Assembly (NCBI GenBank): GCA_000004985.1
Contig: GG738893.1
Source of the DNA: Naegleria gruberi
Lineage: Eukaryota
Reading direction: 5' to 3' (one strand)
Length of the DNA stretch: 64,000 nucleotides
The notes under the pieces were generated by a model. It saw nothing but the letters and a program-made list of their open reading frames with translations, was not told the DNA's origin and ran no database searches. Both the position numbers and the translations under genes were made by a program. Of this stretch, positions 1-52,961 are shown piece by piece (position 1 is the first letter of the stretch; the number at the start of each line of letters is the position of its first letter).

Positions 1-751
1 TAAAGATATTTGAAGTTTGGATAGATGATGATGGGTTGTGTGATAAATTGGTGTAGAGGTATTTTTTTTAAATTTTTTGTCATTTCTAAAAATAAAGTTT
101 GACATTTAGATTTTTTTATATTAGAAACTGACACGGTAAAGATAATCGATTACCGTGTTTCAGTAATTATGAGTGTTGAAAATTATGAAGTCAATAAGAA
201 TGCACGAAGTTGTTGCACTTAGAAAACTATTCGAATAGTTCCAGTTTCCAATCATTTAATGTTTCGAATAAAAATATTGGTAAAAAACTTCATGTTGCAA
301 GAATGGTTACGAAACAGCCACCGTGACATGACCAACCAAGAAACCTCGTATCACTTTAGGTTGGATTCCAAAAGAAACTTAATCGAAACCAAAAAGTCAG
401 GTGGCTGAAATAAATGGACGATGTTCGTCAACATTCAAGCCAAAACTCCTTCCTACATTAACACTTTTCATTTAAAAAAAAATTAAAGCACAAACAATCG
501 CCCACACTATACGAAACGCCTCTATTCGAAACAAGTGACACTCTACTAAATTCTTCAAGTAGAAGAATATATCTGCATCACTCCCTAGCGCTAGATCACC
601 ACTCTCTCGATCGCCTTCCCGCAATCCATTCTCCAACACTTGCTTTCGAATAACTTTAATGTACATAATATAACACAATAATCAAAAACAACAACAAATA
701 TATACAAAAAAACAACAATATATAATAACAATACATATAAAAATATAGAAA

Positions 752-2465
752 ATGGCAACTAAAAAACAATCATCCTCCTCATCACCATTAAAAAATGTTT
801 CGGCGCCAAAAGCATCCGTTAAAGATATTCTTCAATATTTTGATATGAAATTCGATTCCTTTATGGAATATCCACCAGCTAGACAGTGTTTCTTTACCTT
901 TTTGGAATCGACACAAAATAGTGGTATGTTTTTTTTTTAAATTTTAATAATTATTAATATTTAACATTTAAAAATTTATTTAATTTACAAAAAATGTTAA
1001 AAAAATAATAGAAATAAGTTTATTTCTAGAACAAGTTGAATTCTTCAAATCCATCAATGAACTACCAAATAGTAGTCGACGTAATAGATCGTTTGATGTT
1101 GATGAATTTTCGGATCAATTTCTTGGAGCTGCTGGAGCTACATTATGCGAATCTGCTTTATTGAAAGCTTGTGAAATTGCTGATAATTTCATTCATGATC
1201 AAGCTCCAAATGAATTGAATTTGAAATCTGATACGAAAAAGAAAATTCTGGACAAGATTGAAAAGAATAGAACGTACTATGGATTGGAATCCAAAAATGA
1301 GTATAATTGGAGTGGGAACTCTGGGAAAGGGAAACATATTTCTATAGTCCCATTCTTGGATTCGACAATATTTGATGATTTGGAGAGTCATATTTTATTG
1401 TCGTTGAAATCGAATCAGTTTGCTCCATTTTTAGAGAGTGAGATTTTCAAAGAATTTATTGAAAATCAGAAAATTGAAACCTTGTTCATGTTGGCAACAC
1501 CAAGAAAGGCAGCTTCACCTTCCTCTGCTATTCAGGCAACATCAGATAACATTGATTTTTTATTCATGTTAAATAATGCAAGTTCCACATCACGATCAAA
1601 CTCTTCAACTTCTACAGATAGTAGAGATGGAAGTTTAGCAAAGAGTTTTGTAAACTCTGAAACATTATCTGTGGGAGAGGTGAAATATCTCAAATCTGCA
1701 CTATTGGAATATGATCAGAATTTGAAGTGGACTCTTCTGACCTATTCGAAAGAGCAGGAAATTTATGTAATGATTGGTGATCACTCGTGTGAACAAAATT
1801 TTGGAAGAAAAGATTTAATGTTCTATAAGAGTGTAACACATTATCAATATTCAAGTGAGAAAGTGTTTAATGCCCTCATCAATTTTGAATTCAGAAAGAA
1901 TTATACTAATGAGCCATTAGTAGAAGGGGATTTTGTAAAATATCATCCAAAACCAAGTAATCAATTGGGTATTTTGGATTCCGAGTTATTGGAAACTGCT
2001 GTTATTTCAGAATCCTATGAAATGAAATGGCCAATCAGGAATAGAGAATTTATTTTGAGTTGTGCAGCTACAAAAAGCTTCACACCAGAAAATCCAAAAT
2101 TGGAAACTTTTTATCTATTCAAAAAATCAACTCAAAATGATGTGAATGAAACCATTCGATCAAAATTGAAAAATGTACGCGGTTGCTGCATATCAGCTCT
2201 CAAAGTTGAGCCAACTTCCCCAACCAGCTGTAAAGCCACCCAAGTTTTATTTCTGGACATGAAAGGACTCTTGACACAAAATTGGGGTCAGAAAATACTG
2301 ACCTTTAAGGGTGGATCTAAAAAGAAGGGAAGTAAAACCACACTCCAATCCACTCCTCAACAACAATTAGCTCAGTGGATTGAGAAGGATTCTCGTCTCT
2401 CACTGAATTCACCACTATCTGATGCAATTTTGAGAACACTTGCTGAAAATCAAAATATTATTTAA
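752..2465 (+). CDS. RGS (regulator of G-protein signalling) domain protein; 2 exons join(752..923,1030..2465), ~536 aa
   Basis: ATG at 752. Exon 1 ends before GTATGT (924) and a 106-nt AT-rich intron ends TCTAG at 1029. The spliced product reads ...ARQCFFTFLESTQNS|EQVEFFKSINELPNSS..., which matches the FxxFLxSExSxENxxFW-type RGS-box signature. Downstream is Ser/Thr-rich and continues the ORF-track frame 1161..2465 (its 'M' is TTG). Confidence 0.6.
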
Positions 2466-2987
2466 ATTGCTATGCACATTTTAAAGAAGAATCAATAAAC
2501 CAGAAAGTTTATTTTCAAATATTAAAATTCATCTTGAAAGTTGTGGTGTGTTTGGGTTTTAAAAAGTTCAAATTGTTTGCGAATTAAAAAAGATATTAGA
2601 CAGGAATCGCTTTTGGTCTTTGTTAGTAAGATTTTGGTTTGGATTGCGGTGTAATTCCTTGAATATATGTTGTGTATCTGCGTTCCTTTAGTCTGGAAGT
2701 TCTCTAAAATTATATTTTATTGTGGTTTATTTTTATAATAGTCCAACAAGTTCATCTGGTAAATAAAAAACAAATCTAATTCAGGAATAGGGTGATATAA
2801 TACCAGAATTGCTTGCTTACTTTCCATTAAGATTTCAATTTATTCTTCATTATAGTGACGAAAAACTGTTAAACACGAAAACGTTCAAATCAATAAAAGA
2901 TTGTCTCTCATTGTGGTAAAAACATTGAGCAATCCAAAATTAAGTGAATGGCTGTTGAATGGATGTGGAAGGAATATCTGAAATAGT

Positions 2988-5939
2988 TTACTCTTCTTCA
3001 CTGCTAGCTTCAGAATCACAATCATGGTCAGTATTGTCGGTTCCTTCGTTTTCGATCATTGACTGGTCGACACAAGCTCTGCAGTGACCACAACCACCAC
3101 AAATTGGAAGATATGGATTCCTCCTTCCTCTTCCACCATAACTTTCATAGGTATCAACATAGGAACCACTGGCAGCAAGGTCTGAAAGCTCTGAAGTTTG
3201 GTTGGCTTGATCTTCAAGCAATCGTTGTTCCAGTTGGAAAAGCTTCTCCAAGAATTGATTAAAATTGTCTGGGAATGAATGGGAAACTGATTCCATAAAC
3301 TTGTGAATTGCTCTCACACAGGTAAAGAATTTTCTCTCAAACAAATTAAAAGGGTCATCGTTCGCGCTGGTCATTGTCGATATTTCATTAGAGGAGAGCA
3401 GATACATATTCTTTTCTCCAGTCTTGATACATTTAAAAAAGTTTTCCACATCACAATATGGAACTAGCTCATTTCCCTGTTGAAAGAGAATGAGTAGTTT
3501 ACCTGGAAAGCAAGATAATTTGTTGTAGACATCAAAGTGGTGAGTGATGCAATTCTTAACTTCCTTTAAATTGTAATACCTTTCATCTCCAACCTTACAA
3601 ACTATTGTTGTTTTAGGGCGAGCATTCTGTTGTTTGGTACTCATAATCTTCTTATTCTTTGGATATGGCATTCGATAATATTTTTCCACTCCAAAGTTGT
3701 ATTTGGTAAACTCGAATCTAATGGTTTCATCCTCAGGTCTTACAATACCTTGTTCAGCTCCCTGAGAAGAAATATACGATAGGACATTCTCAGGTAAATT
3801 TCCTAAAACTACCTTGAGAACATCAAAACAAGGTGATTCCAAGCAAAGTCCACTCACTGTTGGAAAATTTGAAACAAAATGGATAGCACAAGTACTTCCC
3901 AGAAATCCCTTTCCATACACTACCACTTGAGACATTGGTATTTTGAGTCGTGTCGTGAATAAATGATGAACCAACTTGTAGTCAGTCTCTAGAAATCTAT
4001 GCAAGGAAGTTCTTTCATCCTCACCTTTGGCGCACGTGCTATATCCAAAACCTCTATATTCGAAAATAAATATCTGCAAACCCATCGAAATAATAAAATC
4101 TTTGAACTTCCTTAGTGAAGGTTGGAAGAAATACTCAAAAGCTTCCTCACATCCGTCATGGAATAATAGTAAGGTCTTTTTGGAGGTTGTAGAACTGGAA
4201 TCATCTTGTTTTGTGGAGGTACTTGGCTGCTCGTTTTGGCCAACCATCTCAAAATAACATGAAAGAGTAGCTCCATCCTCACAAACAATATCCACTGTTG
4301 GCACATTTGGAACTGAATTTGATTGAGTCTCGGTTTTTCGTCTACGCCATTTGAATTCCTTTACAAACTTTTCATCGAAAAGAAATGGGTTTTGCTCCTC
4401 CTTCTTTGGAGAGGAAGTTCCAACTGTGGAAACAGCAGGGCTTTCTTCTATCAGTTGAGGTAGGACATATGGATTTGTCAAAAATTCCCTTGGCCCAAGA
4501 ACTTCATAATTAAAAGCCTTACAGAAAATTGGTTGTTCCAATATTTTACAATATCGTTTGAAAACTTGATTCTTAAAAACTTGTAAATCATTGAATAAAA
4601 GATCATTTTCAAAAGGAGCTTGTTCTTTTTGTTGTCCTTTTTTCGTAGAGTTACTAGAGGTAGGATGTTGATCGCCAGAAGTTGATAGACTTGTCATGAA
4701 CGTCATCTTTTTCAAGTAAGTTTTGTTTCTTGTTTTTACAGTAGTTTCCACATTTTTAATTCCAGTTTCTTGTCGTTTCTTCTTTGGTTTCTTCTTTTCA
4801 TCCTCAACATTAGCAAACAAATCCATTGAAACTTTTCCTGACAAGAGAGCAGATGGTGTTAATGTCTGCATTGGAGTATTTTTAAAGACAGTATTTTGAG
4901 TGAGAACCTTTTCCTTTTCATTATTATTATCAGTGAATGCGTTAATATCTACAGGTTTCACTGAATTTTTCTTTTTTTGAGCTAATTTCCTCGAAATGAT
5001 ATTATCCATAGAAGGTTCCTCTTCCTGTCTCGACTTTGGGAATATATCCATTATTGCTCTTGTATTATTTCCATTATTATTATTATGAATTTGTTGCTGC
5101 TGCTGATGATTATGATTAATATTTGAGGCTCCAACAGCAAGATTATTCAAATTTCCTCCACTCGTATTATTCGAAGAAAGATCCACTGATGGAGTAGATT
5201 CCACACTCTTCACCGATAACCCATCAAGATCCAACTCTTGATGATTTATACAATTTGTTCCAGCTGGAACATTACCACCATTCATATTGCCACTACCTCC
5301 ATTACTTCTCGAACCTGATACACCATGTTGATTATTTTTTTCAGAAAGTTGTAAATGATTTTGGCGGGAAAGATTTGGCGTCAAGTTTGATAAAAGTCTC
5401 TTAAAAAAAGAAGCAGCACCACCCTGTGTAGGAGAATGAATCGTAGTATTTGCTGTTGTATTGATGTTGTTCATGGTGTTGGTGAAGGTTGGTGAAGGAA
5501 GTGGTGAGGATGATACTAATAATGGTTGGTGTTGTTGGTTTTGATCGTGCGATGATGAAACATGTTGTTCATCATCACCGCTAGCAATGAAATGATTGTT
5601 GGTTGATGAAAATTCGATATTTTGTGATTGTGATGGTGGAACATGTTGGTGATGATTGTTGTGACTTGGTGATAAATCATTGTTTAGAAAGGGTTTAGGA
5701 TTGTGTTTAATTGGAGAGGTAGATGCATCATTTGGTTGTTGCATATTTTCTAATGTATTCGAATAATTGTTTAAATTATTGGAATGTGCAATAGTATCGG
5801 TTGGACTATTATTTGGATTGTTATTATGCTGTTCCGAAGAAATCATGTTGTATGTTTGGGTGGACAGCAATTGTTGGCAGAGTCGCTTATCATGGATTTT
5901 TTTTGATTTATGACAGAAAAAGCATTTAACGTTGGGCAT
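2988..5939 (-). CDS. Asn/Gln-rich protein (983 aa) with C-terminal alpha/beta-hydrolase (ABHD-like) fold, nucleophile elbow degenerate
   Basis: Single ORF with a true ATG at 5939 and long N/Q/S homopolymeric tracts. The C-terminal ~300 aa matches the ABHD-family pattern ...LLLFHDGCEEAFEYF...IFIFEYRGFGYS...VVVYGKGFLGSTCAIHF.... The GxSxG elbow reads GKGFLG, so the Ser is missing. The protein ends in a Cys cluster (GGCGHCRAC). Confidence 0.5.
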   Translation of the reverse strand: MPNVKCFFCHKSKKIHDKRLCQQLLSTQTYNMISSEQHNNNPNNSPTDTIAHSNNLNNYSNTLENMQQPNDASTSPIKHNPKPFLNNDLSPSHNNHHQHVPPSQSQNIEFSSTNNHFIASGDDEQHVSSSHDQNQQHQPLLVSSSPLPSPTFTNTMNNINTTANTTIHSPTQGGAASFFKRLLSNLTPNLSRQNHLQLSEKNNQHGVSGSRSNGGSGNMNGGNVPAGTNCINHQELDLDGLSVKSVESTPSVDLSSNNTSGGNLNNLAVGASNINHNHQQQQQIHNNNNGNNTRAIMDIFPKSRQEEEPSMDNIISRKLAQKKKNSVKPVDINAFTDNNNEKEKVLTQNTVFKNTPMQTLTPSALLSGKVSMDLFANVEDEKKKPKKKRQETGIKNVETTVKTRNKTYLKKMTFMTSLSTSGDQHPTSSNSTKKGQQKEQAPFENDLLFNDLQVFKNQVFKRYCKILEQPIFCKAFNYEVLGPREFLTNPYVLPQLIEESPAVSTVGTSSPKKEEQNPFLFDEKFVKEFKWRRRKTETQSNSVPNVPTVDIVCEDGATLSCYFEMVGQNEQPSTSTKQDDSSSTTSKKTLLLFHDGCEEAFEYFFQPSLRKFKDFIISMGLQIFIFEYRGFGYSTCAKGEDERTSLHRFLETDYKLVHHLFTTRLKIPMSQVVVYGKGFLGSTCAIHFVSNFPTVSGLCLESPCFDVLKVVLGNLPENVLSYISSQGAEQGIVRPEDETIRFEFTKYNFGVEKYYRMPYPKNKKIMSTKQQNARPKTTIVCKVGDERYYNLKEVKNCITHHFDVYNKLSCFPGKLLILFQQGNELVPYCDVENFFKCIKTGEKNMYLLSSNEISTMTSANDDPFNLFERKFFTCVRAIHKFMESVSHSFPDNFNQFLEKLFQLEQRLLEDQANQTSELSDLAASGSYVDTYESYGGRGRRNPYLPICGGCGHCRACVDQSMIENEGTDNTDHDCDSEASSEEE

Positions 5940-35223: not shown

Positions 35224-36339
35224 TTATTTTCTTGGGAATGCAAACATGTATTGAGGAGGAACAGCGACTGGGTAATCCAAATCTTGAGCAGCTCTAATTG
35301 GCCAGTAAGGATCATTCAAATCTTGTCTTCCAATTAATACTAAATCTGCCTTTCCATCCTTCACTAAATCATTAGCAAATTTAGCTTCCACTATTTTACC
35401 AACTGCACCAGTGGCCAATCCATCAACTGATTTCTTGACGCCCTCAGAGAATGGAACTTGATAACCTTGCACAATTCCAATTGGTGAAATTTTGGCTTTG
35501 GCATTATTACCACCAGATGAACAGTCCAACAAGTCAACTCCAGAATCACGTAAAACCTTTGCTAGCTCTGTAGTGTCTTTCATGGTCCAGCCCTCTTCAC
35601 CAACGTATTCATCAGCTGAAACTCTGACAAATAATGGCATTTCAGTTGGAATATTCTCTCTAATTCTTTGAACAATTTCAATCAAGAATCTAATACGATT
35701 TTCGAATGATCCACCATAAGCATCAGTTCTTTGATTTGAAGTTGGTGAAAGGAATGAGGAAATTAAATATCCGTGAGCTCCATGAATTTCAATAACATCA
35801 AATCCTGCCTTAACAGCTCTCTTAGCAGCATCCACAAATTGTTGAATCACTTCTTGAATTTGTTCAATGGACAATTCTGCAGGAACTTTGTGATTATCAT
35901 CAAATGCAATTGGAGATGGACCAACAACGTCCCATCCTCCTTCTTCATTTGTCAATGCTTTTCTTCCTAGAGCTTCCCACAATCTTCCAGTTGATGCCTT
36001 TCTACCAGCATGACCTATTTGTATTCCGATATGTCCACCCTGTTCGTGTGTAAATTGACAAATTTTAGACAACATGTCAACATGTTCATCTTTGTAAATT
36101 CCTAAACATCCTGGTGAAATTCTACCAATATCCGAAACACCAGTGGCTTCTACAATAAATAAACCAGCTCCACCTACAATTCTACTGCCAATATGTTGAA
36201 CATGCCAGAAATTAGCAAATCCATCAACCGATGAGTACTGACACATTGGGGAGACTACAATACGATTCTTTAAAGTCAATCCTCTAATTTTGAATGGTTG
36301 AAAGAGTGGAGGAACAGATGAGATATCTTGTGCTGACAT
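35224..36339 (-). CDS. NADH:flavin oxidoreductase, Old Yellow Enzyme family (YqjM/NamA-like), 371 aa
   Basis: Full-length collinear match to OYE: ...LFQPFKIRGLTLKNRIVVSPMCQYS...HIGSRIVGGAGLFIVEATGV...GIQIGHAGRKAS...VIEIHGAHGYLISSFLSPTSNQRTDAYGGSFENR.... Confidence 0.85.
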   Translation of the reverse strand: MSAQDISSVPPLFQPFKIRGLTLKNRIVVSPMCQYSSVDGFANFWHVQHIGSRIVGGAGLFIVEATGVSDIGRISPGCLGIYKDEHVDMLSKICQFTHEQGGHIGIQIGHAGRKASTGRLWEALGRKALTNEEGGWDVVGPSPIAFDDNHKVPAELSIEQIQEVIQQFVDAAKRAVKAGFDVIEIHGAHGYLISSFLSPTSNQRTDAYGGSFENRIRFLIEIVQRIRENIPTEMPLFVRVSADEYVGEEGWTMKDTTELAKVLRDSGVDLLDCSSGGNNAKAKISPIGIVQGYQVPFSEGVKKSVDGLATGAVGKIVEAKFANDLVKDGKADLVLIGRQDLNDPYWPIRAAQDLDYPVAVPPQYMFAFPRK

Positions 36340-36799
36340 TTTTTTAATGTTTGTTGAATGAATTGAGTGCGACAGAGATTATTGTTGAAAACTATTTATT
36401 TCATAGAGAGTTAATGTAAATGCGTCCTTTCTTGTTGTGAAGTTCCAAACTATTAGCAGAGGAAGCATAAATCATCTGATGAGGTTGCACAATTATTATC
36501 TTACGACTTTGTGCGTTTCAACAAAGTTTCCGAGACTTTCCGACTAGGTTGAAGATAACAAACTTCCGATACTAAATTATTTATACAAACAATTGCAATT
36601 TTACTCAATCATCATGTTGAATATCATGCAAAGATCACACCCCAATCAAAACCTCATTATTCCCTCATCAATTCCATCAACAAAACATTCAATCTTAATA
36701 CATATTGCAACAAATATTAAATAAATTGAAAAAAATGAAAAACCACAAACACCCATTTATTTTTTGTTGGTAAAATTTGCAGAGCATGAAGGATTTGTT

Positions 36800-40515: not shown

Positions 40516-42775
40516 TTGTTGAGATCAGGATCAGGTTTATCGAGCCAATACGAAAGATATAATTTGAGTATTAATGGATTCTTTATTTTGATTGATTGTA
40601 CTGAAGAAATTGGAGGTTCAGATACTGGAATTCGTATCATTCAACAAAAACATGACAATTTTGGACCAAATTATAAGAATTACAAGTTTGGAAATAAGGA
40701 GACTGAGAATGCAATTTTAAAAGGTTTATCATCTACCAGAAATTTAATCAAATCCAATTTACCACCTAAACAACTTGAAGAACAATTGAAAAAACTTGAA
40801 CAATTGTTTAGAAAGGACATTTTGACAAGAGAAGAATTTGAATCTAAATGGAAAATGGTTTACAATCCAGCAAATAGTGGATCAGAAATGACCTATGCCA
40901 CCACTTCTAATAATCAACAAACTAATACACAGAGTAGTGGCAATATGGATGGCCTCACACAAGATCAATTAGATTTACTTTCCAAGTTGAGAGGGTAAGT
41001 ATTGTGAAATTCACTTTCTAAATTGTAACATTTGTAATAGATTGATTGGAAGAGGCATTATCACACAGGAAGAGTACAATGCCAAGCTCAATAAGCTGAA
41101 AGAAGAAAATCAAAAATCCTCCCCTCCAAAACAACCATCTCTTACTCCAGAACAGAAGCAAATGATTGAAAAATTGGAAAGCCTTTTATCAAAGGGAATT
41201 CTCACACAGGAAGAATTCGAAATGAAAAAGAAACAAATTGTTGGAAATAATTCTCAAATCAGCAGCTCTACATCTGGTCAGAAATCTCCAACTGCAGTAG
41301 AAACAATTTCATTTGAAAAGTATGCACAACAATATGAAGATTTAAAGTGCATGATGAATGAATCTCAAAAACACCAAATGAGAACTCTTGAAAGATTTGT
41401 CAACGATGGAATAATTACACAAGACGAATATGAAATGAAAAAGAAAAAAGTTTTGGGAAATCTTTACACTCCAACAAATTGGATTTATCAAAAGCAACTT
41501 TCTGAAAGAGAACAAACCAGTAGCTCTCCATCTTCTCCTTCTACTCCTTCCTCTACAGAATCTCTATCCGAAAGTCAAAAAGAAAGAATTGAAAAATTGA
41601 AAATATCAAAGGAGAAGGGAATTTTAACCAATGAAATGTTCGAATCGAGAATGCAACAAATTTTGGATGAAAACAAGCCAGTTCAAGACACTGAAGATTA
41701 TTCACATCTCACCTCTGATCAACAAAATTATATTGCCAAACTGAAATATTTCAAAAAGATGGGAATTCTTACACCATCCGAATTTGACATTCAAATGGAA
41801 AAAATCATTTCAGACCCTGATAGTGTCAAGACCGGTGCTCTAGTTTCTTCACCTCAAACACCTACAAGTAGTTCATCAAATTCCTCTCCAAAAACCCCAA
41901 CAGACTCCAAGCCATCCACTCCAACCATTATTTCTAACAAGTCAAGTAAGCCATCTACTCCTACTCCTGTCTTTACTTCAGAAGAAGTGGAAACTCCAGT
42001 CACTCCAACTGATAGCTCTCAAAAGAATCAACAAACCAATACAGTTCCAAAATTGGAAGAAAAGAAGCCAACCACACCAGTACCTATCGTTGAAACCAAG
42101 AAAAAACCATCTTCAGAAAAGATTGTTAAGGAAAGTCCAAAAGAAACAACTCCTAAACAATCATCAACACCAATCAGTAGTGGTGCAGAGCAAGATGAAG
42201 AAATTCAAGATCAACTGGAAAGACTCAGATCACTTGTCGATATGGGAATCATCTCAGAGGAAGATTACAAACAAAAGGAAGAAAAGCTCTTGAAGGGAAC
42301 ACCAACCCCTGCATCTCCAGCTGCTACACCAGAAGAATCCAAACCTGTAGTCAATCAACAAGCAACCAATAATCAAGTCAAACAATTGGAAAAGCTCTAC
42401 AATTCTGGAATTATTTCAAAGGAAGATTTTGAGCAAAAAGTCAACAAAATTCTTGGAAAACCTCAAAATGAGACAACCACCACAAAGGTTGAAAGTCCAT
42501 CCTCTCCAAGAAACACCTCAAATGTCAAAGATCAAAATGTTAAAGTAGAATTGGCCAAATTGAAGAAACTTTTGGAGAATGGAATCATTGCACAAGAACA
42601 ATTCGAAATGAAACAATCTAAATTATTGGGCACTTCTCCATCAAGTACCACCACTGAAACTGAATTATCATCAGAACAAGAGGAGCAAATTGCCAAATTG
42701 AAATCCTTCCTTGATGAGGGTCTCATAGATCAGGACGATTATCAAGAAGAGTTGAATAAAATCTTGAATAAATAA
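40516..42775 (+). CDS. Protein with 10 tandem SHOCT-like (~30-aa) repeats separated by S/T/P linkers; join(..40994,41041..42775); possible extra 5' exons at 40196..40320 and ~40368..40471
   Basis: Repeat units include IEKLESLLSKGILTQEEFEMKKKQIVG, LERFVNDGIITQDEYEMKKKKVLG, LERLRSLVDMGIISEEDYKQKEEKLL, LEKLYNSGIISKEDFEQKVNKILG, LKKLLENGIIAQEQFEMKQSKLLG and LKSFLDEGLIDQDDYQEELNKILNK*. A 46-nt intron (GTAAGT at 40995 ... TAATAG ending 41040) joins ORFs 40516..40998 and 41042..42775. Upstream ORF 40196..40384 can be spliced in frame through two ~47-nt GT..AG introns. That 5' structure is tentative. Confidence 0.5.
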
Positions 42776-45117: not shown

Positions 45118-45646
45118 GATTTTGATGACAATTAAATGAAATTTTCAACTCAGAACAACAACCAGTTGTAAATTCGGAAATTCTATCAAAAGTAACAATA
45201 CACAATTTTTTAATTAAATTGTGAAGGCTAAAACATCAATCGGTTGCAAAAATGGAATAATTTCAGCCCAACAATCTTGATGCATTTTTTTTGTAAAGTT
45301 TAATTATTGAATTCCAATAATAAATTGGATGTAATTTGATAGACAACTTCTTCCACTACTAGCACCTCCTTGAACCAGATGGTGAAGATGATCTTCCACC
45401 ACCACTACTTCCAGCTCCACCTCTAGAACCTCCTCCAGAAGATGATCCACCAGCTCCTCTTGAACCTCCACCACCACGTCCTAAAGTGTTGATGTTATTG
45501 TTATCCTCAATTAATTCTAATCTTTAGCAATTAAGACAGTGTCATTATTCAAAATGAGACTAATTGACAAGTTCAATGTCTTTTGAGAATAAATATAAAA
45601 AAATATTATATAATAAATTAAATTTTATCCGCAATAATTATCACAA

Positions 45647-45913
45647 TTATTTCTTTTCCTTTCCACATAAATTTTTGTGATTTGACCAATCCTGCAATTG
45701 GTGTTCTCTGGAACAGTAATATACAGATCTGCATTTAGAGCATTGTTTTAAATTTTGTGTACTATCACAAATAGCACATGCTTTAACTGGTGCCTTGGAA
45801 AGCATTTTTGTTTCTTCAAAGGTTCCAAGTTTTGATGTGCCTGTTTGGAAATTATAAGAATAGAAATTAGAATCATCCATCTTGGAAACATTACTACGAA
45901 GGGCATTTTGCAC
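45647..45913 (-). CDS. MYND-type zinc-finger ORF; separated from upstream PRiA4_ORF3-like ORF by a single in-frame TAA
   Basis: ...CAICDSTQNLKQCSKCRSVYYCSREHQLQDWSNHKNLC... is a canonical zf-MYND (C-x2-C...C-x2-C...YC-x3-H...HK-x3-C). The frame is identical to ORF 45932..46234, with only TAA (45932..45934) between them. The first ATG after the stop gives MDDSNFYSYNFQ... (77 aa). Confidence 0.5.
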   Translation of the reverse strand: MQNALRSNVSKMDDSNFYSYNFQTGTSKLGTFEETKMLSKAPVKACAICDSTQNLKQCSKCRSVYYCSREHQLQDWSNHKNLCGKEKK

Positions 45914-45931
45914 ACGACGTTTTGCATCTAC

Positions 45932-47317
45932 TTATGAAAAACTGGTTGGATTAAATGATCCTTTTCTTTCAAGGTAATTAGCTGCCTTATTCAAGTGAGA
46001 CATTATTTCAGAATGGCTATCCTTATCTTTGGCAAATGAGGGATTGTTCTTGAAGAGAGTTCCGTAGTAATATATTTGAATGGCATCAGCATATCGATGA
46101 ATAGATCCACAATCTTCTGCTGGGCAACAGTTTTCACCATCTTCAACTGTAATAGTTTGATCATTTGAATCCTCAATATTTTCAACTGTGATTTTGTGTC
46201 TGAATGAATCTCCCAAATCATACATGTAAAACATTTCATCTCCAGTCTAATTACATTGTAGTAAAAAGTAAAAAACACATACCTTTTCAAGTAAATGGAA
46301 TAGTTCAACCTTTGTATCATCTGCAGTGTAAATGTTGTGACTAAACTCGTGCATTTTGTCTACAGCTTGACTGTAAATTGGACCAAATACTAGGTCTGGT
46401 TGTGGCATTCTTTGATTTTTAGAGTCTTTCTTTTCGAATGGGATTTTTCTAAAATAGTAGGCATGATAGTTTCGGCACCATCCAAGAACAGGTGAAATAA
46501 CACGATCTTGCAAACTTTGTAGAGTAATAGAACCAGGTAATTTGACTCTTCTCCAAATGTGTGGTCTAAAGTTCAAAACTTGAATTCTCAACTGGTACAT
46601 TTTGCTTCTGAGATGAGTATTTGGTGAGGCAGTGACTTTCTCCACGAGTTCGTCTGCCTTCCTTTCCAGAACGTCCATTCCACCACTGAACATTAAATTT
46701 TGTCTTGCAAACATGAGCTGTTGAACCTGTTCAATACTCAATTCACTCTGATCTTCTCCTTCCACATAATCATCAACTGAACAGAAAATAGATTCCAAAC
46801 ATTTAGCAATTTGGTTGTGAATTTCACCTTTTTGTGCTTTGGAAATTTCTCCAATATCCAATGCAGATTTTAGTGTCTGCACAACAATTTCTCTAATATT
46901 CTTGATTAATTCTCTTTCCTGCTTATCATCAAACACCTTGTCGTGATCACCCAATTTTGCAAAACTAACAAAAGCTTCACCATACAAAACATATCCAGGA
47001 GCAAAACTTGGTTGATTAATAACACATTCTTGTCCACTATTCAGGGCTTTCAATATAGCCAACCTCTTTTCTTCCTTCTCCGAGAGTTGATCAGCCCTTA
47101 TCAATGAAGCCTTGCATCTAGCTTCAAGCAGGAAGGCAAGGTCATCCTTGCTGATGGCAGAATACTTTTCTACATTGCTGTTGGAAAATACCTCATCTAA
47201 CAAAGCTAGCAGGGAATCAACTTGTTCTGGTTTATCCAGTAGAGAAAGTACCTCCTTCTTCTTTTCCAATACATCGGATGAACTTTGTGGTTTGATCGTA
47301 ACTTTGTATTTGGACAT
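45932..47317 (-). CDS. PRiA4_ORF3-like (IWRR-motif) domain protein; 2 exons complement(join(45932..~46246,~46282..47317))
   Basis: ATG at 47317. Core reads ...MYQLRIQVLNFRPHIWRRVKLPGSITLQSLQDRVISPVLGWCRNYHAYYFRK...ELFHLLEK|TGDEMFYMYDLGDSFRHKITVENIED.... This matches the pRiA4b ORF-3-like domain (YxLRV.L.d..P.IWRR..VP...TL..LH..iq.amGW...HLh.F ... YDFGD.W.H.I.lE). A 35-nt GTATGT..AATTAG intron joins the two ORF-track frames. Confidence 0.55.
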
Positions 47318-47939: not shown

Positions 47940-48219
47940 ATTTACCAATCAAAAAAAAAACAAGAACAACAAATGACCAAGAAGAAAACAGGAATCATGA
48001 CCAACAACGCACCACCATCATCATCACAAATCAAACAACAAGTGCAAGACACAAAAAACCAAACAAGCCTCCTCAAAAAGCAACTCGACTCTATCGTACA
48101 ACAATATGAACAACAATTGGCAAATTTGGAAAAGTTAGAAACTGCCTTGAATGAGAAGGATGAACAAGTCAAAAGTAGAGAAATTCAAGTCGCTCAAAGG
48201 GAACAATCTGTAAAAGATA
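47940..48219 (+). repeat. Segmental duplicate copy 1 (pairs with 52440..52723)
   Basis: Around 250-280 nt are >90% identical between the two sites, including poly-A and the CAAGAACAA...ATGACCAAGAAGAAAACAGGAATCATGACCAACAACGCACC stretch. Both copies are immediately followed by N-runs. Confidence 0.7.
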
Positions 48220-49367
48220 NNNNNNNNNNNNNNNNNNNNNNNNNNNNNNNNNNNNNNNNNNNNNNNNNNNNNNNNNNNNNNNNNNNNNNNNNNNNNNNNN
48301 NNNNNNNNNNNNNNNNNNNNNNNNNNNNNNNNNNNNNNNNNNNNNNNNNNNNNNNNNNNNNNNNNNNNNNNNNNNNNNNNNNNNNNNNNNNNNNNNNNNN
48401 NNNNNNNNNNNNNNNNNNNNNNNNNNNNNNNNNNNNNNNNNNNNNNNNNNNNNNNNNNNNNNNNNNNNNNNNNNNNNNNNNNNNNNNNNNNNNNNNNNNN
48501 NNNNNNNNNNNNNNNNNNNNNNNNNNNNNNNNNNNNNNNNNNNNNNNNNNNNNNNNNNNNNNNNNNNNNNNNNNNNNNNNNNNNNNNNNNNNNNNNNNNN
48601 NNNNNNNNNNNNNNNNNNNNNNNNNNNNNNNNNNNNNNNNNNNNNNNNNNNNNNNNNNNNNNNNNNNNNNNNNNNNNNNNNNNNNNNNNNNNNNNNNNNN
48701 NNNNNNNNNNNNNNNNNNNNNNNNNNNNNNNNNNNNNNNNNNNNNNNNNNNNNNNNNNNNNNNNNNNNNNNNNNNNNNNNNNNNNNNNNNNNNNNNNNNN
48801 NNNNNNNNNNNNNNNNNNNNNNNNNNNNNNNNNNNNNNNNNNNNNNNNNNNNNNNNNNNNNNNNNNNNNNNNNNNNNNNNNNNNNNNNNNNNNNNNNNNN
48901 NNNNNNNNNNNNNNNNNNNNNNNNNNNNNNNNNNNNNNNNNNNNNNNNNNNNNNNNNNNNNNNNNNNNNNNNNNNNNNNNNNNNNNNNNNNNNNNNNNNN
49001 NNNNNNNNNNNNNNNNNNNNNNNNNNNNNNNNNNNNNNNNNNNNNNNNNNNNNNNNNNNNNNNNNNNNNNNNNNNNNNNNNNNNNNNNNNNNNNNNNNNN
49101 NNNNNNNNNNNNNNNNNNNNNNNNNNNNNNNNNNNNNNNNNNNNNACTAAGAAAACAAACACTTCTGATTTGAATTCAAATGTTTTAGGAACAAAATCAA
49201 ATCATTTCAAAGTTAAACTCATATCTAATTGTAATAGTTTAATGATTGGATTTGCACCTAAAAGTATTAATGTGAACGAAACAAATAATAATACAAAATG
49301 TGGATATTATTTATATACTACTACTGGAACCATTTATTCTCAGAATGGAGAATCAAACAAAAGCTAA
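47973..49367 (+). CDS. Coiled-coil / SPRY(B30.2)-like protein gene interrupted by assembly gap (5' part 47973..48219, 3' part 49146..49367)
   Basis: 5' part: MTKKKTGIMTNNAPPSSSQIKQQVQDTKNQTSLLKKQLDSIVQQYEQQLANLEKLETALNEKDEQVKSREIQVAQREQSVKD (coiled coil) runs into the N-run. After the gap an open frame gives ...FKVKLISNCNSLMIGFAPKSINVNETNNNTKCGYYLYTTTGTIYSQNGESNKS* (SPRY-like). Whether both parts belong to one gene is an inference. Confidence 0.35.
   Translation: MTKKKTGIMTNNAPPSSSQIKQQVQDTKNQTSLLKKQLDSIVQQYEQQLANLEKLETALNEKDEQVKSREIQVAQREQSVKDXXXXXXXXXXXXXXXXXXXXXXXXXXXXXXXXXXXXXXXXXXXXXXXXXXXXXXXXXXXXXXXXXXXXXXXXXXXXXXXXXXXXXXXXXXXXXXXXXXXXXXXXXXXXXXXXXXXXXXXXXXXXXXXXXXXXXXXXXXXXXXXXXXXXXXXXXXXXXXXXXXXXXXXXXXXXXXXXXXXXXXXXXXXXXXXXXXXXXXXXXXXXXXXXXXXXXXXXXXXXXXXXXXXXXXXXXXXXXXXXXXXXXXXXXXXXXXXXXXXXXXXXXXXXXXXXXXXXXXXXXXXXXXXXXXXXXXXXXXXXXXXXXXXXXTKKTNTSDLNSNVLGTKSNHFKVKLISNCNSLMIGFAPKSINVNETNNNTKCGYYLYTTTGTIYSQNGESNKS
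48220..49145. other. Assembly gap (926 N)
   Basis: Run of n. Confidence 1.
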
Positions 49368-51419: not shown

Positions 51420-51469
51420 NNNNNNNNNNNNNNNNNNNNNNNNNNNNNNNNNNNNNNNNNNNNNNNNNN
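51420..51469. other. Assembly gap (50 N)
   Basis: Run of n. Confidence 1.
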
Positions 51470-52723: not shown

Positions 52724-52961
52724 NNNNNNNNNNNNNNNNNNNNNNNNNNNNNNNNNNNNNNNNNNNNNNNNNNNNNNNNNNNNNNNNNNNNNNNNNNNNN
52801 NNNNNNNNNNNNNNNNNNNNNNNNNNNNNNNNNNNNNNNNNNNNNNNNNNNNNNNNNNNNNNNNNNNNNNNNNNNNNNNNNNNNNNNNNNNNNNNNNNNN
52901 NNNNNNNNNNNNNNNNNNNNNNNNNNNNNNNNNNNNNNNNNNNNNNNNNNNNNNNNNNNNN
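52724..52961. other. Assembly gap (238 N)
   Basis: Run of n. Confidence 1.

Follow-up and report, generated by a model that had tools for sequence, protein, structure and literature searches.

The minus strand of the 64,000-nucleotide stretch of Naegleria gruberi DNA analysed here (the window) carries a single PRiA4_ORF3-MYND gene of 544 codons, built from two exons and one 36-nt intron, whose frame is interrupted by one premature TAA. We found the cause of the interruption to be a non-programmed one-base disruption, with no recoding, no hidden intron and no true splitting of the gene. To the reading that the stop is a real and young nonsense allele we give about an even chance; preferring it over an error in the consensus relies on a rough prior that sets the chance of a nonsense allele, in a genome that is heterozygous and clonal, against that of a substitution error in a Sanger draft. 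An earlier note on this DNA had described a PRiA4_ORF3 domain and a MYND finger lying in one frame and split only by the TAA at 45932..45934, and both the sequence and the Pfam matches agree with this description.

Table 1. Features of the PRiA4_ORF3-MYND locus, in positions of the window
Feature	Positions	Strand	Description
Exon 1	46283..47317	-	ATG at 47317; 345 codons; N-terminal helical region (aa 1-238, without Pfam match) and start of PRiA4_ORF3 with IWRR
Intron	46247..46282	-	36 nt, phase-0 spliceosomal, GTATGTGTTTTTTACTTTTTACTACAATGTAATTAG, GTATGT...TTAG; in-frame TAG at 46249..46247
Exon 2 up to premature stop	45935..46246	-	104 codons, ends '...GSFNPTSFS'; YMYDLGD core of PRiA4_ORF3 and helical insert
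Premature stop TAA	45934..45932	-	In-frame; in place of a conserved Leu/Ile/Val codon, motif DPxxF[DS]-L
Post-stop open frame	45931..45650	-	94 codons: helix VDAKRRVQNAL, linker with SKMDDSNF, MYND finger
MYND zinc finger	45665..45778	-	CAIC...CSKC...YYCSREHQLQDWSNHKNLC; all eight ligand positions intact (C4-C-H-H-C); PF01753
Terminal stop TAA	45649..45647	-	Ancestral; followed by TTG and then by TGA at 45643..45641

The gene model in Table 1 differs from the earlier description in two details. The intron, previously put at 35 nt, measures 36 nt (46282..46247), and as this length is a multiple of 3 and the intron contains an in-frame TAG, all three open reading frame pieces come to lie in one frame. 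The position 45913, previously taken as the start of the MYND reading frame, is merely the GTG start given in the open reading frame list, while the frame itself opens at 45931, directly after the TAA. With stops making up 5.9% of the triplets in the window, 94 open codons would arise by chance with P ~0.003, and nowhere else in the 64 kb did we observe a lone stop between two open frames that each run for 80 codons or more, the intron TAG of the same gene aside. The base composition runs evenly through the junction, with a G+C content of 34.6% before the premature TAA and 34.4% after it, and it drops to 22% only beyond 45647, the real flanks of the gene having 22-30%. The window as a whole has 33.5% G+C and stems from a draft assembly, with three N gaps within the window. 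The N-terminal region of about 238 aa is shared with only one homologue (P0001, at 59% identity).

We accepted the 36-nt intron because it has a GTATGT donor, because introns occur at the same position in two other contigs, and because homologues align gap-free once it is removed. At this position, the related genomic contig L001 has an intron of 41 nt and the metagenome contig L004 has one of 36 nt, both unrelated to the present intron in sequence. About eleven other candidate introns of 36-59 nt in the window have donors of the form GTA[AT]GT. The gene model from Acrasis is without the 36-nt intron.

Profile searches placed both domains with high significance, in keeping with the earlier description of a pRiA4b-ORF3-like domain with an IWRR motif and a textbook MYND finger. 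In the spliced 449-aa product, PRiA4_ORF3 (PF07929) matched aa 239-404 with an E-value of 1.6e-30 and 106.6 bits (cut-off 26.6), covering profile positions 1-145 of 173, the IWRR motif included. In the open reading frame after the stop, zf-MYND (PF01753) matched over the full length of its profile (positions 1-39 of 39) with an E-value of 1.2e-11 and 44.8 bits against a cut-off of 22.7, and all eight zinc ligands are present in the order C,C,C,C,C,H,H,C. His takes the sixth ligand position (YCSREHQ), as it does in 7 of the 12 aligned homologues. In their full profile match and their ligands, the MYND fingers of ZMYND10, DEAF1, AML1-ETO and SMYD1-3 resemble the finger of the window, whereas they differ from it in having Cys rather than His as the sixth ligand; unlike the known MYND fingers, moreover, the one in the window lies, as assembled, downstream of a stop codon.

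The stop had been thought to lie between the two domains, yet it falls inside the last conserved motif of PRiA4_ORF3 and not in the linker. Placed through the homologues, the TAA aligns at about position 171 of the 173 positions of PF07929, and in two of these homologues (P0010 and P0012) the PRiA4_ORF3 match extends through DPxxF[DS]-L up to profile position 172. In the window, which reads FNPTSFS-TAA, the C-terminal motif DPxxF[DS]-[LIV] (profile positions ~165-172) is incomplete, with the stop replacing the hydrophobic residue. By these alignments, the TAA sits at the C-terminal boundary of PRiA4_ORF3.

Structure prediction places a further conserved element beyond the stop. We built an AlphaFold2 model from a 13-sequence alignment with X at the stop position and with the downstream residues included, and obtained a mean pLDDT of 80.7, with a mean of 90 for residues 211-220. 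A helix spanning residues 214-224 directly follows the stop position (residue 212). Foldseek matched the model to PDB 2i1s_B with an E-value of 1.9e-11 and a target-normalised TM of 0.75, indicating an MM3350-like fold, and the MYND part superposed on PDB MYND domains with an rmsd of 1.0-1.5 Å. At the level of sequence, 2I1S was likewise the top PDB match (phmmer against 2i1s_A, E 3.8e-07), with MYND domains coming next. Both sequence and model thus assign the window protein the same PRiA4_ORF3 fold as 2I1S, the Methanosarcina mazei protein MM3350 of unknown function. Compared to 2I1S, the protein of the window is a eukaryotic version that contains inserts (an FEKKDSKNQ loop and, at ~aa 405-440, a helical one) and a fused MYND finger, and the stop precedes its last conserved helix.

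The earlier note proposed to check whether orthologues encode a fused protein. The check was run, and homologues were found to be continuous, the closest relative included, rather than consisting of two separate genes. A word-indexed search found PF07929 and PF01753 in one chain in P0002 (Acrasis kona AKO1_001793) and in P0003 (a metagenomic TPR protein); this type of search missed the closest relative (P0008) and many other true homologues that an exhaustive search found. The exhaustive HMMER search, run over 1.84 billion representatives, returned 5708 matches at E <=0.001, 28 of them at E <=1e-30, and many of the matches cover query residues ~235-541 in one stretch. Both motifs occur in the correct order in at least 66 of the top 150 homologues, as counted by regular expressions and pairwise alignments, a method that under-counts domains. 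Named members with the fusion include Planoprotostelium fungivorum, Arcella intermedia (from a transcriptome), Rozella allomycis and Gloeochaete wittrockiana (from a transcriptome), and in every homologue that we examined the two domains are uninterrupted. As continuous PRiA4_ORF3-MYND homologues occur in diverse organisms, some of them known from transcriptomes, the fusion is ancient, and other organisms carry it on single transcripts.

The likeness to these fusions extends over the whole C-terminal part of the gene. The proteins of Acrasis kona (AKO1_001793), Planoprotostelium (PROFUN_10925) and Rozella (EPZ33199) have the same order as the window: first PRiA4_ORF3, then ~50 residues of linker, and at the C-terminus the MYND finger. 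They share with it the motifs IWRR, GWCRNYHAYYF, YxYDLGD, DPxxFDL and SxxDxSN and show 36-44% identity to it over about 300 aa. Unlike these relatives, the window has TAA instead of Leu in DPxxF[DS]L, and where some relatives (P0003 and P0012) carry TPR repeats, the window has an N-terminal region of its own. The locus clearly belongs to the PRiA4_ORF3-MYND family by descent, although, as assembled, it is without the uninterrupted frame that defines the family.

The best match of the exhaustive search, P0008, has 195 aa and 72% identity, and its coding sequence is identical on two independent metagenome contigs, L004 (ENA) and L005 (JGI). Its open reading frame is continuous, beginning just downstream of the conserved intron and extending through the whole MYND finger. 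The window and L004 align gap-free from the first codon of exon 2 through to the final sense codon, and in the pairwise alignment L004 stops at the codon homologous to the terminal TAA of the window. At the premature stop, L004 reads TTT TCA CTA GTA GAA, with a Leu codon, where the window reads TTT TCA TAA GTA GAT. Across 124 aligned homologues, the residue at this position is Leu in 58, Ile in 22 and Val in 21 (together 101/124). TTA accounts for 24% of the Leu codons in the long open reading frames of the window, and a change from TTA to TAA takes a single transversion. The ancestral codon at this position was probably Leu and, as far as codon usage and a one-base path can tell, presumably TTA. 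As the downstream neighbour of L004 differs from that of the window, we regard L004 as a close homologue, though not necessarily a strict orthologue, whose source is a related organism resembling Naegleria.

Purifying selection is equally strong before and after the stop. In the comparison of the window with L004, exon 2 gave a dN of 0.192 and a dS of 1.62 (dN/dS ~0.12) over its 104 codons upstream of the stop, and a dN of 0.166 and a dS of 1.60 (dN/dS ~0.10) over the 94 codons downstream of it; the part after the stop has 74.5% amino acid identity to L004 and no gaps. The locus does not resemble an old, decayed pseudogene, in that it has one lesion only and a dN/dS downstream of the lesion that is the same as upstream. 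Because dN/dS is equal on the two sides, the MYND ligands are intact, the G+C content remains coding-like and no further lesion is present, the stop must have arisen very recently in evolution if it is real at all.

The same comparison bears on whether the gene has truly split, with the PRiA4 and MYND parts expressed separately and the MYND part translated from an ATG at 45881 or by reinitiation. We consider this highly unlikely, even though an in-frame ATG is available 17 codons after the stop (MDDSNF...) and MYND-only proteins exist in other organisms. The junction has no intergenic spacer and no room for a promoter, its 34% G+C is kept throughout as against 22-30% in the real flanks, and the MYND piece lacks a separate start context. 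The 17 codons from the stop to the ATG are conserved as coding in L004, and no homologue shows such an arrangement. As to reinitiation, it is inefficient in eukaryotes after an open reading frame of 449 codons.

Removal of the stop by splicing, through a mini-intron of 12 or 15 nt (GTTTTTCATAAG / GTTTTTCATAAGTAG), or its decoding as a sense codon in a variant code has, in our estimate, a close to negligible chance. Excision of the 15-nt candidate would bring the linker to the length found in Acrasis P0002 and in P0003, yet its five codons are matched by conserved coding sequence in the closest relative (SFS*V versus YFSLV). Both candidates have a GTTTTT donor, which contrasts with the GTA[AT]GT donors of the introns of 36-59 nt in the window, and both are well short of the 30 bp that was set as the minimum intron length for read mapping on the basis of predicted Naegleria fowleri genes (PMC8296547). 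We thus rejected the 15-nt mini-intron on the gap-free alignment to the closest relative, the conserved codons, and the donor and length statistics. The earlier statement that GT..AG candidates of 12 and 15 nt were the only ones available was too narrow, as in-frame pairs of at least 102 nt exist as well, but it was right in that no usable intron is at hand: these longer pairs start with poor donors (GTTTTT, GTCTCA, GTGGAT and similar), and splicing at them would remove conserved residues.

A ciliate-type code, with TAA read as Gln, was hinted at by the gene end TAA-TTG-TGA, by the AT-rich sequence and by the tiny intron. We rejected it on the presence of open reading frames of up to 983 codons in the standard code. 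Two open reading frames of the window, translated in the standard code, are identical to the N. gruberi proteins EFC40373 and EFC40371 (337-kb contig), and the 64 kb contain no other case of an in-frame stop. N. gruberi uses the standard code. Some of the window's open reading frames that seemingly end in TAA do so at GTAAGT intron donors, and counts of such frames are not clean evidence on stop usage. The G+C content and gene density of the window are in line with the figures reported for the N. gruberi NEG-M genome, which has 41 Mb, 33% G+C and 1.7 exons per gene (PMC8296547).

Decoding of the TAA could alternatively be partial. If the stop were real but leaky, near-cognate decoding would yield a short PRiA4-only and a long PRiA4-MYND isoform and the downstream part would stay under selection; we hold this to be improbable. 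The variant in which the TAA is real, homozygous and partly read through, so that both the PRiA4-only and the PRiA4-MYND protein come from one mRNA, is somewhat less probable still. The fully intact downstream frame, with purifying selection against L004, is what readthrough would predict, and a very young stop explains it equally well. The stop is not conserved, being CTA (Leu) in L004 and L005 and a sense codon in all other homologues. Known readthrough contexts are UGA-CUAG and UAG-CARYYA (TMV); the context here is UAA GUA GAU, and to our knowledge UAA-G is not among them. The 120 nt downstream of the stop fold worse than shuffled sequence, with a minimum free energy of -13.5 kcal/mol compared to a shuffle mean of -18.1 (z = +1.48), and we found no match to an Rfam element. 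The case is a single one, with no other in-frame stop in the 64 kb, and no tRNA gene was found in the window.

Programmed readthrough (as in TMV with UAG-CARYYA or in the UGA-CUAG genes) and codon reassignment (as in ciliates) have in common with the window that a stop is followed by a conserved, intact extension. They differ from it in the points that matter for decoding: the stop of the window is shared by none of the relatives, it stands in a UAA-G context, the downstream sequence is unstructured, the case is unique within 64 kb, and the code is standard. If a partly read-through TAA did turn out to be true, it would make the locus a readthrough gene of recent origin, specific to one heterolobosean lineage. 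The three readings offered earlier (a recent split of a fusion gene, an error at one base, or readthrough or suppression of the stop) are narrowed by these results, in that one ancestral fusion with a single stop, due to a very recent change or a base error, was borne out, while a functional split was not, and neither was readthrough or suppression, given the non-conserved stop, its UAA-G context, the lack of downstream structure and the absence of other in-frame stops in the window.

An error in the consensus or base calling of the draft, with TTA (Leu) as the true codon and an intact gene of 544 codons, is a tentative reading that we take seriously; the site would then have no biological significance. 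The TAA is one base away from a Leu codon at a position where 101/124 homologues have Leu, Ile or Val; the gene has no other defect, its dN/dS is equal across the stop and all its MYND ligands are intact; a perfectly intact downstream frame is equally expected from an error; and the assembly is a draft with gaps. The site itself is not of an error-prone kind, as it lies outside homopolymers and not beside a gap, the nearest run of N being 2.3 kb away, and stop-creating substitution errors are generally rare in a multi-fold Sanger consensus.

For the nonsense allele, we propose that a one-base substitution turned the conserved Leu codon (presumably TTA) into TAA at 45934..45932, and that the sequenced DNA itself would carry this change, which would be of very recent origin. 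The TAA would then most likely be a loss-of-function allele carried by NEG-M, a heterozygous lab strain that is propagated clonally, and the other haplotype may be intact. Translation under the standard code would stop at the TAA and give the 449-aa product, which is predicted to keep the N-terminal helical region and nearly the whole PRiA4_ORF3 (MM3350-like) fold and to lose the last conserved helix of the fold, the linker and the MYND finger. MYND fingers are protein-interaction fingers that bind peptides. A heterozygous allele is plausible because a gene 9 kb away occurs a second time in the assembly, on a contig of its own of 7.9 kb, with 2/371 residues differing (99.5% identity), and because Naegleria has been described as a diploid that is mostly heterozygous and reproduces by mitosis (PMC9928731).

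Searches for independent sequence of the locus covered proteins and metagenomes. Exact look-up of the truncated open reading frame and of six hypothetical fusions carrying L, Q, K, E, S or Y in place of the stop returned no protein from the locus, and word-indexed homology searches returned no protein model from it, which is weak evidence given that such searches miss true homologues. A DNA pattern scan of the JGI metagenomes with 26 nt, as well as a protein-guided metagenome scan, returned no N. gruberi sequence that covers the site. The locus is a conserved gene that is apparently without a protein model in the collections searched.

We suggest annotating the locus as a single PRiA4_ORF3-MYND gene that contains a 36-nt intron, with a flag for a premature stop or possible base error. 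The disruption is an ordinary one-base event, with no sign of a new mechanism of decoding or splicing. The PRiA4_ORF3-MYND family to which the gene belongs is old and widespread, occurring in Heterolobosea, Amoebozoa, Rozella and a glaucophyte, and it is completely uncharacterised; in the literature library searched, no paper names both PRiA4 and MYND, and none of the papers listed mentions PRiA4. If the nonsense allele is real, NEG-M would be a natural truncation mutant without the MYND finger, which could be used to probe the function of the finger.

We searched protein collections for the product of the PRiA4_ORF3-MYND gene at 45647..47317 (-), truncated or fused, and found no model of it in these collections, in which the neighbouring genes are represented. 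The in-frame TAA that interrupts the gene may be the cause of its absence from the annotation. Directly downstream of the 3' end of the gene, reading the sequence by eye revealed a coding-like, low-complexity stretch rich in Gly, Ser and Arg (GGGSRGAGGSSSGGGSRGG...), which may represent one exon of a protein of the RGG type.

On the metagenome contig that encodes the closest relative (L004), the sequence upstream of the relative's exon lacked homology to the N-terminal 180 aa of the window gene, and the G+C content was 46% in the first 330 nt (1..330) versus 36% in the remainder. The relative may have an extra intron or a different N-terminus, or it may be a paralogue. Its downstream neighbour is a membrane protein, and for this neighbour synteny with the window is absent. 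In Acrasis kona (contig L002), the PRiA4_ORF3-MYND gene is preceded on its own strand, at a distance of 66 bp, by a zf-MYND gene of 451 aa. This zf-MYND gene could have arisen as a tandem relative or, alternatively, be the N-terminal part of one larger gene that was mis-split.

Across the window, long ORFs are linked by many candidate introns, which measure 40-59 nt and have either a GTAAGT or a GTATGT donor (examples in the table). A simple count of TAA terminators comes out too high, as the GTAAGT donors themselves make ORFs end at an in-frame TAA. One such likely intron, of 46 nt at 40995 (+), belongs to an ORF with at least six SHOCT repeats separated by Ser/Thr/Pro-rich linkers. Because the SHOCT domain is chiefly bacterial, so long an array in a nuclear gene of Naegleria is unusual.

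The assembly contains three gaps (N runs) within the window. Furthermore, the Old-Yellow-Enzyme-like gene has a second N. gruberi entry, EFC35632, which is located on a 7.9-kb contig and differs from EFC40373 by two V/I changes. This copy is probably an uncollapsed second haplotype, which would make this chromosomal region heterozygous in the assembly.

Coordinates of features in the window and on the relatives' contigs
Feature	Position	Strand	Remark
Old-Yellow-Enzyme-like gene	35224..36378	-	identical to EFC40373
SHOCT repeat ORF	40991..42775	+	594 codons; PF09851, E 1e-45
Gly/Ser/Arg-rich stretch	45350..45480	-	
N run, 926 nt	48220..49145		assembly gap; breaks gene starting at 47973 (+)
N run, 50 nt	51420..51469		assembly gap
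N run, 238 nt	52724..52961		assembly gap
Candidate introns, examples	7402, 16094, 18107, 23823, 23987, 38556, 40995, 63717	+	GTAAGT or GTATGT donor; 40-59 nt
Candidate introns, examples	28717, 14014	-	GTAAGT or GTATGT donor; 40-59 nt
L004, membrane protein	1544..3094		
L002, zf-MYND then PRiA4_ORF3-MYND	1503..2934 and 3001..4071	same strand	gene pair
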